DNA from: Candidatus Baldrarchaeota archaeon
Lineage (GTDB): Archaea; Asgardarchaeota; Baldrarchaeia; Baldrarchaeales; DXJG01
DNA: 32,000 bases
Direction: 5' to 3'
NCBI GenBank assembly: GCA_019056805.1
Contig: DXJG01000004.1
Span: 30,001-62,000 of the forward strand
Part shown: positions 2,980-31,951 of the stretch, one piece after another
Layout of the letters: each line of letters begins with the position of its first letter
Position numbering within the stretch: the first letter of the stretch is position 1
The notes under the pieces: model-generated
Databases searched by the model: none
Told to the model about the DNA's origin: nothing
The model's input: only the letters and a program-made list of their open reading frames with translations
Position numbers and translations under genes: made by a program

Positions 2980-3072
2980 ATTTCTATTTAAAGTCATACA
3001 AAAGAGGATAGACACTTCTGAAAACCCGCACGATATCTATTTTCTGGTTTCATACAACTGAATATCATCATA

Positions 3073-4020
3073 TCACTTTTTTTCCTCTATTACGAGTCTC
3101 GTACTAAGATATCTTGCTCCATAATCTGGAAGAATGGTCACAACTCTTTGTCCATCGCTAAGTCCTAGTTTTTGCCCCAGTCTAATAGCTGCTAATACAT
3201 TAGCTCCCGAAGATATTCCTAAAAAAAGTCCTTCCTCTCTTGCTAAGCGCCTAGCCATTTGGATAGCCTCATCACTACTAATTAACACCCATTCATCAAC
3301 AAGATGTTTATAACGTTTAACGATCTCTGGTACAAAACCGTCACCAATGCCTTCAATTTCATGTCTACCCCATTTACCAAGAGAAATCGTTGGACACTCG
3401 GCGGGCTCCATACCAGCAACATAAACATTTGGATTATGTTCCTTCAATCTCTTAGCAATTCCCATTAAGGTTCCTCCAGTACCAACTCCCGCAACAAAAG
3501 CATCAACCTTGCCTCCAGTTTGCTCAAGAATCTCTTTCCCAGTAGTTTCATAATGTGCTCTAACATTCTCTTTATCATCCCATTGATCAAAGAAATAATA
3601 CTTGTCAGGATGTTCTTCAGCAAGTTTCCGAGAATATTCTAAGGATTGAAAGACGTCGCTTTCACCGCCGGGAGTATGTACAATCTCTGCACCATAAGCT
3701 TTTAAAATAAGCATTCTCTCCTTACTCATCTCCTCAGGTATTACAATCATTACTTTGTACCCAAGATAAGCGCCGACAGCAGCAAAGGCAATTCCTGTGT
3801 TACCAGTAGTTGGAACGACAAGAGTCATTCCAGGCCTAAGTTTCCCACTTTTCTCAGCAGCACGAATCATATAAAGTGCTATACGATCTTTAACACTACC
3901 ACTAGGATTCAAAAACTCGGCTTTAGCCCAAATCTCAAACGGTAAGTCCTTAGTAACCTTTGTTAACTTCAATAAAGGTGTATTACCAATCATTTCAATC
4001 ATATTATTTAAAGACCTCAT
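3073..4020 (-). CDS. cysK: PLP-dependent cysteine synthase family protein (CysK/CysM-like)
   Basis: IGNTPL, KAEFLNPSGSVKDRIA (PLP lysine), TTGNTG, GVGTGGT, IEGIG, GISSGAN motifs; exact substrate not determinable. Confidence 0.85.
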   Translation of the reverse strand: MRSLNNMIEMIGNTPLLKLTKVTKDLPFEIWAKAEFLNPSGSVKDRIALYMIRAAEKSGKLRPGMTLVVPTTGNTGIAFAAVGAYLGYKVMIVIPEEMSKERMLILKAYGAEIVHTPGGESDVFQSLEYSRKLAEEHPDKYYFFDQWDDKENVRAHYETTGKEILEQTGGKVDAFVAGVGTGGTLMGIAKRLKEHNPNVYVAGMEPAECPTISLGKWGRHEIEGIGDGFVPEIVKRYKHLVDEWVLISSDEAIQMARRLAREEGLFLGISSGANVLAAIRLGQKLGLSDGQRVVTILPDYGARYLSTRLVIEEKK

Positions 4021-4628
4021 TTAACTCCCTCAAAACACCTTTTTACGGATTACATGATATGCTAAAATATTTTAACTAAAACATTACTTAATTTTAGCAA
4101 GTCTCAATATCAATATTTCTCTCAATAATGTTTTAATTTTATAATCTCCTTAGATTTGCTTATAATTGTATAAGAGTCTCACTTGAATCTCTTTATTGGT
4201 AAGAAATCAAACTAAAAATATGTAAAATGTAATTTACCTACTTCTCGAATAGAGTTCGAATGTGATGATTGATGTAGTACAAAGCTTCGTGCCTTGATTT
4301 TCAATTCCTCCATCTTACTTACTGCCTCGTTCCTGTTACGAGTACATGAACATATATTTTTGAAAAATTAGAGAGTAAGAGTTTTTCAGAAATATTAGTT
4401 GTCACTTATTGATACGCGACGGCTGCATGAATTATCGAGTCGAAAAACTTATAGGAGAATATGTTTCATAGCCTACTTCTTAAAATGTGGAGGTCTCGCT
4501 CAGAGGCAATTTGTATGGTAAGGAAACAAAAAATAATCTACTTGCAATCTATGGAGTATTCGAGAAAAGAATCTGATACTATCATCAAGCCTTTACAAGG
4601 ATCAAAAACTTAAAAATATTAAAGGAAG

Positions 4629-28372: not shown

Positions 28373-29239
28373 ATGTCTTTACCCAATCTAGTGCTAAGGG
28401 AAAAACTTAGAAAAATGCTGGAAGAGGATTTAGGATTTGGAGATATTACCACAGAAATTGTTGTTCCCGAAAATCTTATGGCTAAAGCGCAAATAATTGT
28501 AAAAGAATCAGGTTTCATAGCTGGTATAGAAGAAGCTTCTATACTTCTCAAAGAACTTGACATTAATGTTAAAAGCAAGGTTAAAGATGGAAGCAAGGTG
28601 AATGCTGGAACAGTCATTATGGAGATAGAAGGTCCAGCAAGGTCAATTTTAATGTGTGAGAGAACAATTCTAAATTTACTTATGAGGATGAGTGGAATAG
28701 CAACTCTAACAAACCTAATGGTTGAAAGAGCAAGAGAGGTAAATCCAAAAATTACAGTGGCTGGCACAAGAAAAACTGTTCCTGGGCTCAGATATTTTGA
28801 CAAAAAGGCAATAAAGATTGGTGGGGGAGATACTCATAGGTTAAGATTAGATGACTGTGCTTTGATCAAGGATAATCATATCGTAGTTGCTGGAGGAGTT
28901 AAAGAGGCTATAAAAAGAGTTAAAGAGGCAGTAAGCTTTACTAAGAAGATAGAAGTAGAAGTGCAAAGCATCGAAGGCGCTTTAATAGCAGCTAAAGAAG
29001 GTGTAGATATAATAATGTTAGACAATATGAAACTCGAAGAAATTAAAGAAGTGATTAAGAAATTGGAGGAGGAAGGGTTACGAGATAAGGTTTTAATCGA
29101 AGTTTCAGGTGGAATAACCCCCGAAAATATAAAAGAATATGCAGAAACGGGAGTTGACATAATATCATTAGGCTACTTAACACACTCCGTAAAAGCACTT
29201 GATATGAGCCTCAAGATAACAGAAATAATTAAAGAATAA
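28373..29239 (+). CDS. nadC: Nicotinate-nucleotide pyrophosphorylase (carboxylating), quinolinate phosphoribosyltransferase
   Basis: EDLGFGDITT, ERTILN, SGIAT, TRKTVPG, HRLRLDD, LIKDNH, IEVEV, IMLDNM, EVSGGI motifs. Confidence 0.97.
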   Translation: MSLPNLVLREKLRKMLEEDLGFGDITTEIVVPENLMAKAQIIVKESGFIAGIEEASILLKELDINVKSKVKDGSKVNAGTVIMEIEGPARSILMCERTILNLLMRMSGIATLTNLMVERAREVNPKITVAGTRKTVPGLRYFDKKAIKIGGGDTHRLRLDDCALIKDNHIVVAGGVKEAIKRVKEAVSFTKKIEVEVQSIEGALIAAKEGVDIIMLDNMKLEEIKEVIKKLEEEGLRDKVLIEVSGGITPENIKEYAETGVDIISLGYLTHSVKALDMSLKITEIIKE

Positions 29240-29317
29240 AAAATTAAAATAAACTTTACCTGTATGCCCTTCGTATAAAAAAGAAATTAATATTTATTAT
29301 GTAACAGACCTACTTAA

Positions 29318-29365
29318 TCATCCACTAGGTTTCTTTTCCTTCTTTTCTTTCTTCCTCTTTGACAT
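29318..29365 (-). CDS. Putative 15-aa basic micropeptide MSKRKKEKKEKKPSG
   Basis: AGGAGGTGA RBS (29379-29371) 5 nt before ATG; TGA stop; T-rich tract downstream; resembles second sORF at 30794. Confidence 0.55.
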   Translation of the reverse strand: MSKRKKEKKEKKPSG

Positions 29366-29741
29366 GTTTTTCACCTCCTACGTGGGAGCTCGGTTTCCAA
29401 TATGTATATTCCTTTCTCCGTTAAAAAAATCGTAATTAAGAGTCGCAAAAAATCTTAGAAGCGATTTTAACGACTTTTTGGTAAATGTAGAATTCTATAT
29501 TTAATGGTTTGTAATTTCCGGTGAAAATCGTTTTGATATTTTACCATGAAACTTTGCAAAAATTATTCATAGTTGTCACAAAAATGTATCAAAAAATACG
29601 TATATATGTTCTTATGGTTTTAAGCTATTTAACATCTTAATTCTCTTCATGCATCTAGGAGAATGCTATTATGGAAAGAAAACATTAAAAAATATTACTT
29701 TCAGCATCATTAGTTTTGTAGTTAATGGAACGGTGGAGTTA

Positions 29742-30476
29742 ATGTATATCGTCATTTCTCTTTCTAAAGGCGAAATAAGTAGAGATTTGTCTGAAAAGCT
29801 AAAAGTTAGTGGTTTTAATAAAATTAAGGAAGGTGTTTGGATAGGGTTGAGTGAAAAATTTAATTTTGAAAATATTACGAAAAATGGTTTTTCAGAGGTC
29901 CTTGTTTTAAAAAAGAGTCGGAAAATATATACACCTCATATAGGGTCAGAAGAAATAAACGTTGGTTCACTTACATTTTTATCCTACAAAATACCATTAA
30001 ATCCCCCTAAAATTAGAAAAAATATCGAAAGAGTACTATGGAGAATCCCCTGTATCAGAATACGTAAAACTACTTATATTTTTCCTTTTTTTAAAGATTC
30101 TGCCAAAATAGGAAATATGGTCTCAGTTAGTGAAATGAAACGGTTGATAGAGTCGGTTGGGGGCTATTGCTTTAAAATTTCTAAGCTTGTACCTATCAAG
30201 GACTGGATGCATCAAGAAATTTTCCATTTATTTAAAACAAATATTGAGGAGAAAGTTAACAAGTTAAATTTACTTTTAGATAATCTGACAAAAAAACTAA
30301 AAAGAGGGGAGATTGATAGGAAAGTAGCTCTTAAAAACCTCTATGAAATAAAGTTTCGTTTTCAGGGACTATTTTCATGCGCAATATTTCTGAAAAAATG
30401 GTTAAAAATAGATGAAACAACCAACCTACAAAAAATTAAGAATAAGATAAGTAAAGTAAAGCAGATATTACAATGA
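29742..30476 (+). CDS. Hypothetical protein with ChrB-N-terminal / PaaX-Cas2-like ferredoxin module(s) and helical C-terminus
   Basis: FLSYKIPLNPPKIRKNIERVLWRIPCIRIRKTTYIFP...LIESVGG...EIFHLF...KWLKID resembles ChrB-N; N-terminal GFNKIKEGVWIG resembles a second such module; ATG 29742 after GGTGGAG. Confidence 0.5.
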   Translation: MYIVISLSKGEISRDLSEKLKVSGFNKIKEGVWIGLSEKFNFENITKNGFSEVLVLKKSRKIYTPHIGSEEINVGSLTFLSYKIPLNPPKIRKNIERVLWRIPCIRIRKTTYIFPFFKDSAKIGNMVSVSEMKRLIESVGGYCFKISKLVPIKDWMHQEIFHLFKTNIEEKVNKLNLLLDNLTKKLKRGEIDRKVALKNLYEIKFRFQGLFSCAIFLKKWLKIDETTNLQKIKNKISKVKQILQ

Positions 30477-30793
30477 ATTTTAATTTAGAGACAGTTTATT
30501 CAATATGGAATAAATGGTCGTGGAAGTTTAATATCTCAACTATCAAATGCAGCATGTTCTTACACCCTAGTTAGATAAATTTAGTGACAGATACAAATTC
30601 TCCTTTTAAAAGTCTAAAAGAAATTATTTCAATAGTTTTCCTTCTAATTCAAAAACTACTGGAGCAATTTTACGCTTTTTTACAAGTTTTAATAAAGGTG
30701 TCAATGATAACAAATTTACCATATTTCCGAATTGTCATTCGAGTTAAATAAAGTATAAATATATGTGTCATGCTTTTTCTTGTGGTGATGAAA

Positions 30794-30853
30794 ATGGCAA
30801 AGAGAAAGGGGAGGAGGAAAAGAAGGAAGAAGAAAAAGGAACCCGGTGAATAA
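30794..30853 (+). CDS. Putative 19-aa basic micropeptide MAKRKGRRKRRKKKKEPGE
   Basis: TATAAATA box at 30754-30761, GGTGA RBS 5 nt before ATG, TAA stop; resembles sORF at 29318. Confidence 0.55.
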   Translation: MAKRKGRRKRRKKKKEPGE

Positions 30854-31036
30854 AAGTCCTAAAAAATGAAAACACAACTTTTGTCGTATTTTTAGTTTAG
30901 GTTTTATGAAAAACTATATAAAACGACATTTTAAATTTCTCTGCTATACTGGTAGAAATTTGAGTATCAAAAGATATTATTGATCTTTATATGCTGTATA
31001 TTGTTTTAACAATTCCTATTGGCTAGGTGAAATATT

Positions 31037-31951
31037 ATGGAAGATAACACAGTTTTGTTCTTTGAAGTTTTAAAGCTTTACACCGAACTTGTTGAACTTG
31101 AAAAAAGATTATCCACGGAGAAAAATATGCAACATGAATTAATACAAAATATCATGAGAAGAATTAAACGACTTAATAAGCTAAATAAAGATAATTGGAT
31201 TTTCTTCATCAAAAGTTTACCTTTGGAATTTTTCCTTTCCAGTTCTACAGATTTTACATCAAAAGATAATTTTATGAGATTTGTGAGAATATTTCGTAAA
31301 CATCTAGAGAAAAATATTGCTTACTCTCGATATTCATCAAAACTACATTTAAAAGATGCTATTTTTAAAGAAAACAAACTTCAACTACTTTTCCCCATGG
31401 AAGAGTTCAATCCAGGCTATTTATACAAAGAAGGATGGAAACCTGTTTTAATTACAGTTCCTCACGCAACTCCACCGTTCTCAGATAAAAATGTGGATAA
31501 AATAGCTTTACAAACAGCCAAATTATCTGGAGCACATGTCCTTATTTCAACAATTTCAAGAATATATGTGGACCCCAATAGACCTGAAGCTAGAATTACA
31601 CCGTTTAGAAGGATAATAGAGCGTCTAACATTACGAGAAGGAAAAATAAAAGTTATTTTGGATTTGCATGGCACTTTAAGAAGCGATGAAGAAATTGATG
31701 TTGAGATAGGGGTCTTTAGAAAACTTACTGCCGATGAGGAAATTATAGAGAAGTTGCTTACTCATTTTCAAAAAAGAGGGTTGAAATGTGAACTTGAAGT
31801 GAACAATTTTATTGGTGGCGATATTATTTTGCATCATTCCTTAGTTCCAGATATTCAGGCAATTCAAATTGAATTATATCCTAAAGCAAGAAATATACTA
31901 CGTAGAAATGTGATCGAAGCACTAACTGAATTTATAAAAGATTTTAAATAG
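31037..31951 (+). CDS. N-terminal helical domain fused to an N-formylglutamate amidohydrolase-like (Zn exopeptidase fold) domain
   Basis: VLITVPHA, SD, SRIYVDPNR, ILDLHG, IQIEL motifs; AGGTGA RBS. Confidence 0.65.
   Translation: MEDNTVLFFEVLKLYTELVELEKRLSTEKNMQHELIQNIMRRIKRLNKLNKDNWIFFIKSLPLEFFLSSSTDFTSKDNFMRFVRIFRKHLEKNIAYSRYSSKLHLKDAIFKENKLQLLFPMEEFNPGYLYKEGWKPVLITVPHATPPFSDKNVDKIALQTAKLSGAHVLISTISRIYVDPNRPEARITPFRRIIERLTLREGKIKVILDLHGTLRSDEEIDVEIGVFRKLTADEEIIEKLLTHFQKRGLKCELEVNNFIGGDIILHHSLVPDIQAIQIELYPKARNILRRNVIEALTEFIKDFK

Follow-up and report, generated by a model that had tools for sequence, protein, structure and literature searches.

Tiny polybasic ribosomal proteins neutralise the phosphate charge of RNA and are often missed in annotation. 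Among them, eL41/eS32 has about 25 residues with an M-R-x-K-W-[RK]-K-K-R motif and occurs as a single copy in nearly every archaeon and eukaryote. LysW-type carriers have an acidic zinc-ribbon body, a C-terminal Glu of the EDWGE type and a conserved adjacency to an ATP-grasp ligase. To our knowledge, genes of 15-30 codons fall under the cut-off of every standard gene caller. In this work, two short open reading frames (sORFs) of that size, named sORF1 and sORF2, were studied in a window of 32,000 nucleotides (contig C11, positions 30001-62000) from an archaeal metagenome-assembled genome of 1.92 Mb with 35% G+C, assigned to Candidatus Baldrarchaeota. On balance, the comparative evidence favoured the reading that both are real micro-genes, separately transcribed and translated and paralogous to each other, which belong to an undescribed Asgard family of polycationic micro-proteins encoded beside a PaaX/ChrB_N-like gene and predicted to bind polyanions.

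Organization of the sORF1 and sORF2 loci

sORF1 was located on the minus strand at 29318-29365 (ATG 29365-29363, stop 29320-29318) with 15 codons plus stop, and sORF2 on the plus strand at 30794-30853 with 19 codons plus stop. The predicted peptide of sORF1, MSKRKKEKKEKKPSG, starts with MSKRK and consists of 15 aa with 53% Lys/Arg (K/R), and that of sORF2, MAKRKGRRKRRKKKKEPGE, starts with MAKRK and consists of 19 aa with 63% K/R. Upstream of sORF1, the Shine-Dalgarno (SD) sequence AGGAGGTGA (29371-29379, minus) forms a 9-nt match to the archaeal anti-SD and is separated from the ATG by a 5-nt spacer, while a TATA-like box ATATACATAT (29400-29409, minus), a putative promoter element, lies 35-44 nt upstream of the ATG and aligns with the TATA region of sORF2. 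A T-run TTTCTTTTTT (29277-29286, minus), about 30-40 nt past the stop, would serve as an archaeal terminator. For sORF2, the SD was GGTGAT (30784-30789, plus) with a 4-nt spacer, and the same hexamer with the same spacing recurs in L081, a metagenome relative, and ahead of the genus g12 sORFs. The TATA-like box GTATAAATATAT (30753-30764, plus) of sORF2 falls within a block of 15 nt, AAATAAAGTATAAAT, which L081 shares without any change, and T-runs 3' of the frame (30879-30899, plus) make a candidate terminator before the hydrolase-ligase operon starting at 31037. The frames, SD sites, TATA-like boxes and T-rich ends were located as the original prediction had claimed, including a TATA-like box belonging to sORF2 itself.

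Between the two frames lies the gene of a 244-aa basic protein (29742-30476, plus), which belongs to an unnamed archaeal family and was a constant neighbour of the sORFs. sORF1 is divergent from this gene at a distance of 376 nt, and sORF2 follows it by 315 nt on the same strand. On the other side, nadC ends at 29239 and is convergent with sORF1, which therefore faces the end of nadC and has no co-oriented gene downstream, as had been noticed in the original prediction. The operon from 31037 encodes an FGase-like hydrolase, a GCS2 ligase and a YheC/D-type ATP-grasp protein, and sORF2 lies 183 nt upstream of it on the same strand.

Two other origins of the frames were considered and set aside. 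Truncated 5' ends of longer genes were ruled out, as there is no room and the frame does not continue. The two purine tracts as terminal inverted repeats, with the 244-aa gene as the cargo of a small mobile element, were rejected because the arms are units of promoter, SD and open reading frame (ORF), of which homologues elsewhere carry only one, and because target duplications and transposase features were absent at the locus. Separately, a pyrimidine run just 5' of the sORF2 SD could pair with the first purine codons and enclose the SD and ATG (30773-30808). L081 (4056-4092) allows the same pairing through other bases; transcription of the run depends on where the unmapped start site lies.

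Chance expectation and relatedness of the two loci

The genome contained 2949 intergenic ATG frames of 8-60 codons, of which 12 were at least 50% K/R and 39 carried an SD match of at least 6 nt. Both properties were combined in 3 frames against 0.16 expected (about 5e-4, hypergeometric approximation), namely the two sORFs of the window and one further frame, on contig C9. The list anchored on SD matches also recovered eS30, RpoP, rubredoxin and ferredoxin, and it is therefore taken to enrich for real genes. Nine copies of AGGAGGTGA were found in the genome, and all nine had a start codon 2-10 nt downstream. Polypurine tracts of at least 25 nt numbered 18 in the genome; the two in the window ranked third and seventh in length and were the only long ones outside larger coding frames, apart from poly-A at a contig end.

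The loci of sORF1 and sORF2 shared 20 of 25 nt over the SD, spacer, ATG and first codons, and their last four codons (CCT AGT GGA TGA and CCC GGT GAA TAA, respectively) differed by transitions only. Judged from these sequences, the two loci are related beyond low complexity.

The third polycationic frame, MPRKCGRKSKGKKTTKSKKSK (C9:423259-423324; L032 2260-2325), has GGTGATC 4 nt upstream and sits between SHMT-like and SerK-like genes. In the genome G001 of the same genus, MPRRCGRRSKKKKKKTKEIKKSG was seen at the syntenic place upstream of SerK. A candidate for a paralogue of the 244-aa gene beside this third frame proved unrelated (hhalign probability 0.2%). The two ends of another contig, C8 (28,139 bp), are inverted repeats of each other; their identity is 92-98% over ~150 nt and falls off towards ~190 nt, and each end holds a K/T-rich frame of 19 codons, MKKKTHNSKKT[TA]KTRKETT; a linear element or an assembly effect is possible.

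Conservation in close relatives

A DNA similarity search with both intergenic regions gave no match in 40 relatives. In three genomes of the same genus, the nadC protein was 80% identical and synteny stopped at the nadC stop codon; both the sORFs and the 244-aa gene were absent from these genomes, and the region is therefore accessory. Where Logan contigs from four DNA runs covered the window, they matched it exactly, showing no population variation.

A syntenic relative was found in L081, a 123 kb JGI contig in which nadC is followed by a homologue of the 244-aa gene and then by NiFe hydrogenase; a RimK-type ATP-grasp gene was seen on the other side of nadC. The homologue (3001-3730) is broken: it is stopped after codon 55 and changes frame at least once, the tblastn alignment continuing in another frame, and its fragment of 55 residues is 61% identical to the 244-aa protein. 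About 340 nt past the end of this homologue, at 4078-4128, lies MSKKERKRKKKEKEPG, a 16-codon K/R/E frame ending in KEPG, which keeps its ATG and is preceded by the retained AAATAAAGTATAAAT block and by GGTGAT at the same spacing. By its place, MSKKERKRKKKEKEPG is the positional orthologue of sORF2, three codons shorter and in frame at both ends.

Distribution of the pairing among Asgard genomes

A profile of the 244-aa protein family was found in 88 of 399 other Asgard genomes. Forty-nine loci, chosen by the family gene alone, were scanned for frames with an ATG start, 12-45 codons, at least 38% K/R and at most 15% hydrophobic residues. A polycationic frame was present in 20 of the 49 loci, from six further genera (g12, g17, g27, g38, g47 and g54) in four taxonomic families. 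The frames flanking the family gene had 17-30 codons and started with M-[ASGP]-K-K/R-K. In genus g12 the frame was found at +208 to +259 nt on the same strand, as sORF2 is (for example MAKKKSGKKSKGKTTTSKEKKAKK), and in genera g27, g38, g47 and g54 it was found about 410-600 nt upstream in divergent orientation, as sORF1 is (for example MAKKKPAKKAKPATTSKKKK); these two positions are exactly those held by sORF2 and sORF1 in the window. The frame of genus g17 lies ~1 kb downstream of the family gene. Further sORF cases came from the metagenome loci L082 and L187, outside the 49-locus set. Each of the genomes G043 and G113 has two paralogous family genes, and every copy has its own sORF downstream.

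As a control, the same scan was run on 96.5 kb of unrelated Asgard loci, where it found nothing, and on this entire genome of 1.92 Mb, where its 13 distinct hits correspond to an expectation of ~1.2 for the 49 loci. The pattern GTGAT-spacer-ATG-x-K-K/R-K...KK was detected in 67 of 400 genomes against ~6 hits for the reversed control. Short frames among these hits were confined to g12, g38 and this genome, all within 520 nt of a family member, and the hits in lineages without the family were the N-termini of long proteins such as tailed histones. Histone-fold proteins with Lys/Ala/Pro-rich tails starting MAKKK or MPKKK, from other Asgard families, were seen among the pattern hits (L130-L133 and L151).

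At another locus, L189 (JGI 3300025144 contig), a called 29-codon polyacidic, Trp-rich frame, MAEDWEEEGWSNEEWGEEEGEEGWEEEEW (3022-3111), was observed 230 nt downstream of the family member P0022. It occupies the position of a polycationic sORF and is followed by an ABCE1-like gene.

Substitution pattern of the orthologues

Among the ten g12 orthologues, pairwise differences at codon positions 1, 2 and 3 were 183, 243 and 454, and the six g38 orthologues gave 38, 20 and 68. Synonymous changes made up 259 of the 553 differing codon pairs. A single aligned serine was encoded by TCA, TCT or AGC, which is a switch of serine codon family. The lengths of orthologues differed by whole codons only, and the SD, spacing, ATG and stop position were invariant, while the flanks were less conserved. 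The original prediction had proposed a search of relatives for synonymous variation behind an exact start motif. The variation was found, in other genera. The motif fared otherwise: the pattern ATG-[AS]-K-R/x-K followed by 12 purines gave 16 hits in 400 genomes against 8 in the control, mostly N-termini of long proteins, and thus the exact motif defines no family.

This substitution pattern bears directly on the possibility that the tracts are a non-coding polypurine or Lys-codon-rich DNA or RNA element, such as an operator, promoter element or small RNA, in which the frames would be incidental because purine runs cannot hold stops. Such an element would agree with the near-pure polypurine frames of this genome, L081 and L082, and with the purine-rich frame at the same position in L189, which reads as polyacidic. 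The frames of g12, g38, g47 and g54, however, are not polypurine, yet they keep start, stop and frame, and for g12 and g38 a purely nucleotide-level constraint therefore does not explain them. The change mainly at third positions, the swapped serine codon families and the invariant SD and spacing also count against a non-coding element, as does the coding nature of all other long purine tracts in the genome. The RNA structure of the transcripts was no better than that of shuffled sequences (z +0.2 to +0.7), and Rfam returned nothing at gathering thresholds; with E up to 1 allowed, it gave no more than two rows, both at the level of chance. Taken together, a non-coding element was considered improbable; it is possible only for the lineage of this genome and L081 taken alone.

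The neighbouring basic protein family

The 244-aa protein has an isoelectric point (pI) of about 10 and a net charge of +25, and the proteins of its family range from pI 9.5 to 11.2 and from +12 to +36. A word-based protein search with the 244-aa protein returned only the query itself, and the exhaustive HMMER search yielded a small family of 38 representatives, which structural clusters showed to be common also in Bathyarchaeia and Thorarchaeia. The AlphaFold2 model (predicted local distance difference test score 93) consists of two ferredoxin-like modules and a three-helix bundle. Its full-length structural matches were unnamed archaeal clusters from Bathyarchaeota and Thorarchaeota with template modelling (TM) scores of 0.77-0.81.

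PaaX is a repressor and ChrB a chromate-sensing regulator; their fold has a Cas2-like ferredoxin domain ahead of a helical bundle, and PaaX has in addition an N-terminal winged-helix domain for DNA binding. A moderate resemblance to ChrB_N/PaaX models was detected in the C-terminal two thirds (residues 73-244), with TM by query of 0.35-0.50. Over residues 65-244, the TM by query was 0.50 for an archaeal ChrB_N cluster and 0.35-0.44 for bacterial ChrB_N/PaaX clusters. The top row in the PDB was PaaX 8a39 (E 0.004, TM 0.26), the Pfam match to PaaX_M was below threshold (E 0.17), and the wide structural search with the model gave generic helical bundles only. No winged-helix DNA-binding domain was found in the model, and residues 1-60 form a beta-alpha-beta-beta unit with no helix-turn-helix.

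Downstream genes and ribosomal candidates

The position of sORF2 before an operon raises the question of a leader or regulatory upstream ORF. Charged tRNA, polyamines or ribosome stalling would then be sensed through translation of a leader rich in Lys/Arg, which would control the hydrolase-GCS2-ATP-grasp operon in the case of sORF2 or a transporter in g38 and g27. The distance of 183 nt on the same strand fits such a role, and so do the MFS gene after the sORF in G148 (g38) and the CitMHS gene in G044 (g27), both 150-200 nt downstream, and the pyrimidine run that can pair with the first purine codons in this genome and L081. The orientation of sORF1 towards the nadC end does not agree with it, and convergent genes follow the L081 orthologue, the g12 sORFs, most sORFs of taxonomic family f7 and those of G169, G166, G086 and G139. 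Moreover, the downstream gene varies inside one genus, eight other loci with the ligase module have no such frame, and no alternative-hairpin structure stood out in the folds. A leader role was thus judged very unlikely, and the view of the original prediction that a pure leader function does not suffice was upheld by the many sORFs that are followed by convergent genes.

The same operon suggested that the peptide could serve the adjacent ATP-dependent ligases as substrate or carrier, with extension or loading of the sORF2 C-terminal Glu as in LysW/LysX or RimK/S6. This idea draws on the -EPGE end of the sORF2 peptide and on the genes that it precedes, the FGase-like hydrolase, GCS2 ligase and YheC/D-type ATP-grasp protein. 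The module is arranged as hydrolase-GCS2-ATP-grasp here (31037 onward; L012 2037-5692) and as ATP-grasp-hydrolase-GCS2 in eight loci (L023-L030) from two other Asgard genera, and none of those eight genomes has a polycationic frame near its homologous module. Further, the L081 orthologue ends in Gly and lies away from the ligase module, Gly or Lys is the last residue in sORF1 and in the rest of the family, and the peptides have no zinc ribbon, no Cys pairs and no acidic carrier body. A function as ligase substrate, one of the options in the original prediction, was regarded as extremely improbable. Another of its options, a partner of neighbouring proteins, gained support for the 244-aa gene only; for the ligases it was not supported, given the eight homologous loci that lack a frame.

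It was also considered that the sORFs encode ribosome-associated micro-proteins which insert into rRNA like eL41/eS32, Thx or the mycobacterial bS22/bL37, with the basic neighbour as a ribosome-associated or assembly factor. Their size and charge are comparable with those of these proteins, the SD-anchored scan that finds them also recovers eS30 and RpoP, G014 has an eL41-like frame at a distance of 1 kb from its sORF, and the family gene adjoins ABCE1 in L189. On the other hand, the sORFs are patchy and accessory, missing from the three same-genus genomes and from most Asgard families, and two g12 species have lost theirs. The sequences turn over fast and have no conserved Trp/Arg motif, and the genome already has an eL41-like frame of its own. 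This frame, MRRKWLKKRRRRMKRKQRRRKK, lies on the minus strand of contig C9 (394208-394276) with no SD upstream and may be unannotated. An eL41-like identity, proposed earlier among the options, was consequently not borne out, and a ribosomal role of this kind appeared unlikely.

Discussion

Our work defined a candidate family by an ATG frame of 15-30 codons with at least 45% Lys/Arg (about 50-60%), few hydrophobic residues and a start of the form M-[ASGP]-K-K/R-K, by a GGTGAT- or GGAGG-type SD 4-6 nt before the ATG, and by a position ~200-320 nt downstream of the 244-aa family gene on the same strand or ~380-750 nt upstream in divergent orientation. sORF1 and sORF2 agree with this definition in composition, start motif, SD and position (-376, divergent, and +315), and an SD of this kind at this spacing also precedes the sORFs of g12 and g38. 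From the sequence comparisons, it is highly probable that sORF2 is a real coding gene of the family, and this is likely, to a lesser degree, for sORF1. The original prediction of two related, unannotated genes for a family of tiny polycationic peptides was thereby sustained, with an orthologue in L081, the same positions in six further genera and coding-type substitutions in its favour.

Several observations weigh against the reading of the sORFs as a translated, nucleic-acid-binding family. Sixteen genera with the 244-aa protein family showed no sORF within 1.5 kb. In two g12 species (G072 and G059), the start of the sORF was lost by deletion while its last codons and the protein gene remain, so that the sORF is dispensable. 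The peptides of this genome and L081 consist of K/R/E only and are encoded by polypurine DNA, whereas those of other genera are made of K/S/T/G/A/P; the case for homology across genera is therefore made by position, start motif and signals and not by sequence alignment. The whole L081 intergenic region is 79% identical to that of the window and the L081 ORF is no better conserved than its flanks, and for this reason the retention of SD, ATG and an open purine-only frame in L081 is weak proof of selection. Translation is a prediction from sequence for all family members, and nucleic-acid binding and a regulatory link are proposed solely because of the charge, the resemblance in fold and the order of the genes.

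The module formed by the micro-gene and the 244-aa gene would be an accessory one, being absent from the three genomes of the same genus and with either gene losable alone. The genes of a type II toxin-antitoxin pair, here a Cas2/VapD-like toxin and a small partner, are expected to be retained or lost jointly, no toxin persisting in the absence of its antitoxin. Such a pair was not supported, because the protein gene of L081 is broken beside an intact sORF and the sORF of G072 and G059 is deleted beside an intact protein gene. The many genera that carry the 244-aa family protein alone also count against such a pair.

If sORF1 and sORF2 do belong to a polycationic micro-protein family, each peptide would be a disordered polycation whose polyanionic ligand is most likely RNA or DNA, and the basic neighbour may act on the same nucleic acid target. 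Direct binding between protein and peptide is unlikely because both are polycationic; as both are basic, a polyanionic target is suggested, and nucleic acid would account for this most simply. That the peptides bind nucleic acid, and that the neighbour serves them as co-factor or regulator, is put forward tentatively, at somewhat less than an even chance. The divergent or tandem layout with a PaaX/ChrB-like protein would also fit a regulator and a regulated gene. In that alternative, the neighbour as a PaaX/ChrB-type sensor may control a shared or adjacent promoter and the micro-protein would be the regulated output. A wider and rather unlikely proposal is that of a widespread archaeal two-gene module, in which a PaaX/ChrB_N-like sensor without a classical DNA-binding domain controls or cooperates with a polylysine-like micro-protein made by ribosomes, by which RNA or DNA would be coated or condensed, as a free-standing, inducible counterpart of the Lys-rich tails of eukaryotic histones and H1.

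Eight family peptides of at least 20 residues were absent from ~15 billion predicted proteins, a look-up for which the sORF1 and sORF2 peptides are too short. The same eight had no match in Pfam or in the PDB sequence set, in line with the earlier statement that no named family was recognised, and the full-text literature search returned no paper on such a polycationic micro-protein family. In one NCBI assembly, the gene caller had overlaid the sORF with a gene of 40 codons that is read in a different frame. Comparative genomics alone thus gave conserved, coding-like frames with a fixed partner gene, which represent a concrete and testable small-protein family of Asgard archaea and a first functional handle on an uncharacterised family of basic proteins. 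Should nucleic acids or ribosomes prove to be bound by the peptides, a new class of polybasic micro-proteins would stand beside eL41, Thx, bS22/bL37 and the protamines, and if the reading as a two-gene module is true, the archaeal lineage nearest to eukaryotes would have a module that all current annotation fails to show.

Among known systems, eL41/eS32, Thx, bS22 and bL37, with 20-35 residues, a Lys/Arg content of more than half and no fold of their own, resemble the sORF products, but the latter have no KW..KR-type motif, are not universal and are tied to a specific non-ribosomal neighbour. Protamines, H1, the Lys-rich tails of archaeal histones and adenovirus Mu are likewise low-complexity K/R (S/T/P/A) polycations that are expected to bind nucleic acids; the sORF products differ in being free-standing, with 15-30 residues, and not tails of domains, and no link to chromatin genes was seen. 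Attenuator leaders such as hisL, mgtL and speFL, which are defined by a co-oriented regulated gene immediately downstream and by RNA hairpins that exclude each other, resemble them in very short length, strong ribosome-binding site and biased composition, whereas most family members have neither a co-oriented downstream gene nor alternative RNA structures. The likeness to LysW and to S6, the RimK substrate, is limited to sORF2, which alone ends in Glu near an ATP-grasp ligase, but sORF2 has the opposite charge and no zinc-ribbon body, and its association with the ligase is not conserved. From PaaX and ChrB, the 244-aa protein differs by a second ferredoxin-like module in place of the winged-helix domain, and no transporter or catabolic operon is consistently attached to its family; nevertheless, its divergent layout with a small target gene recalls the regulator-target pairs of these systems.

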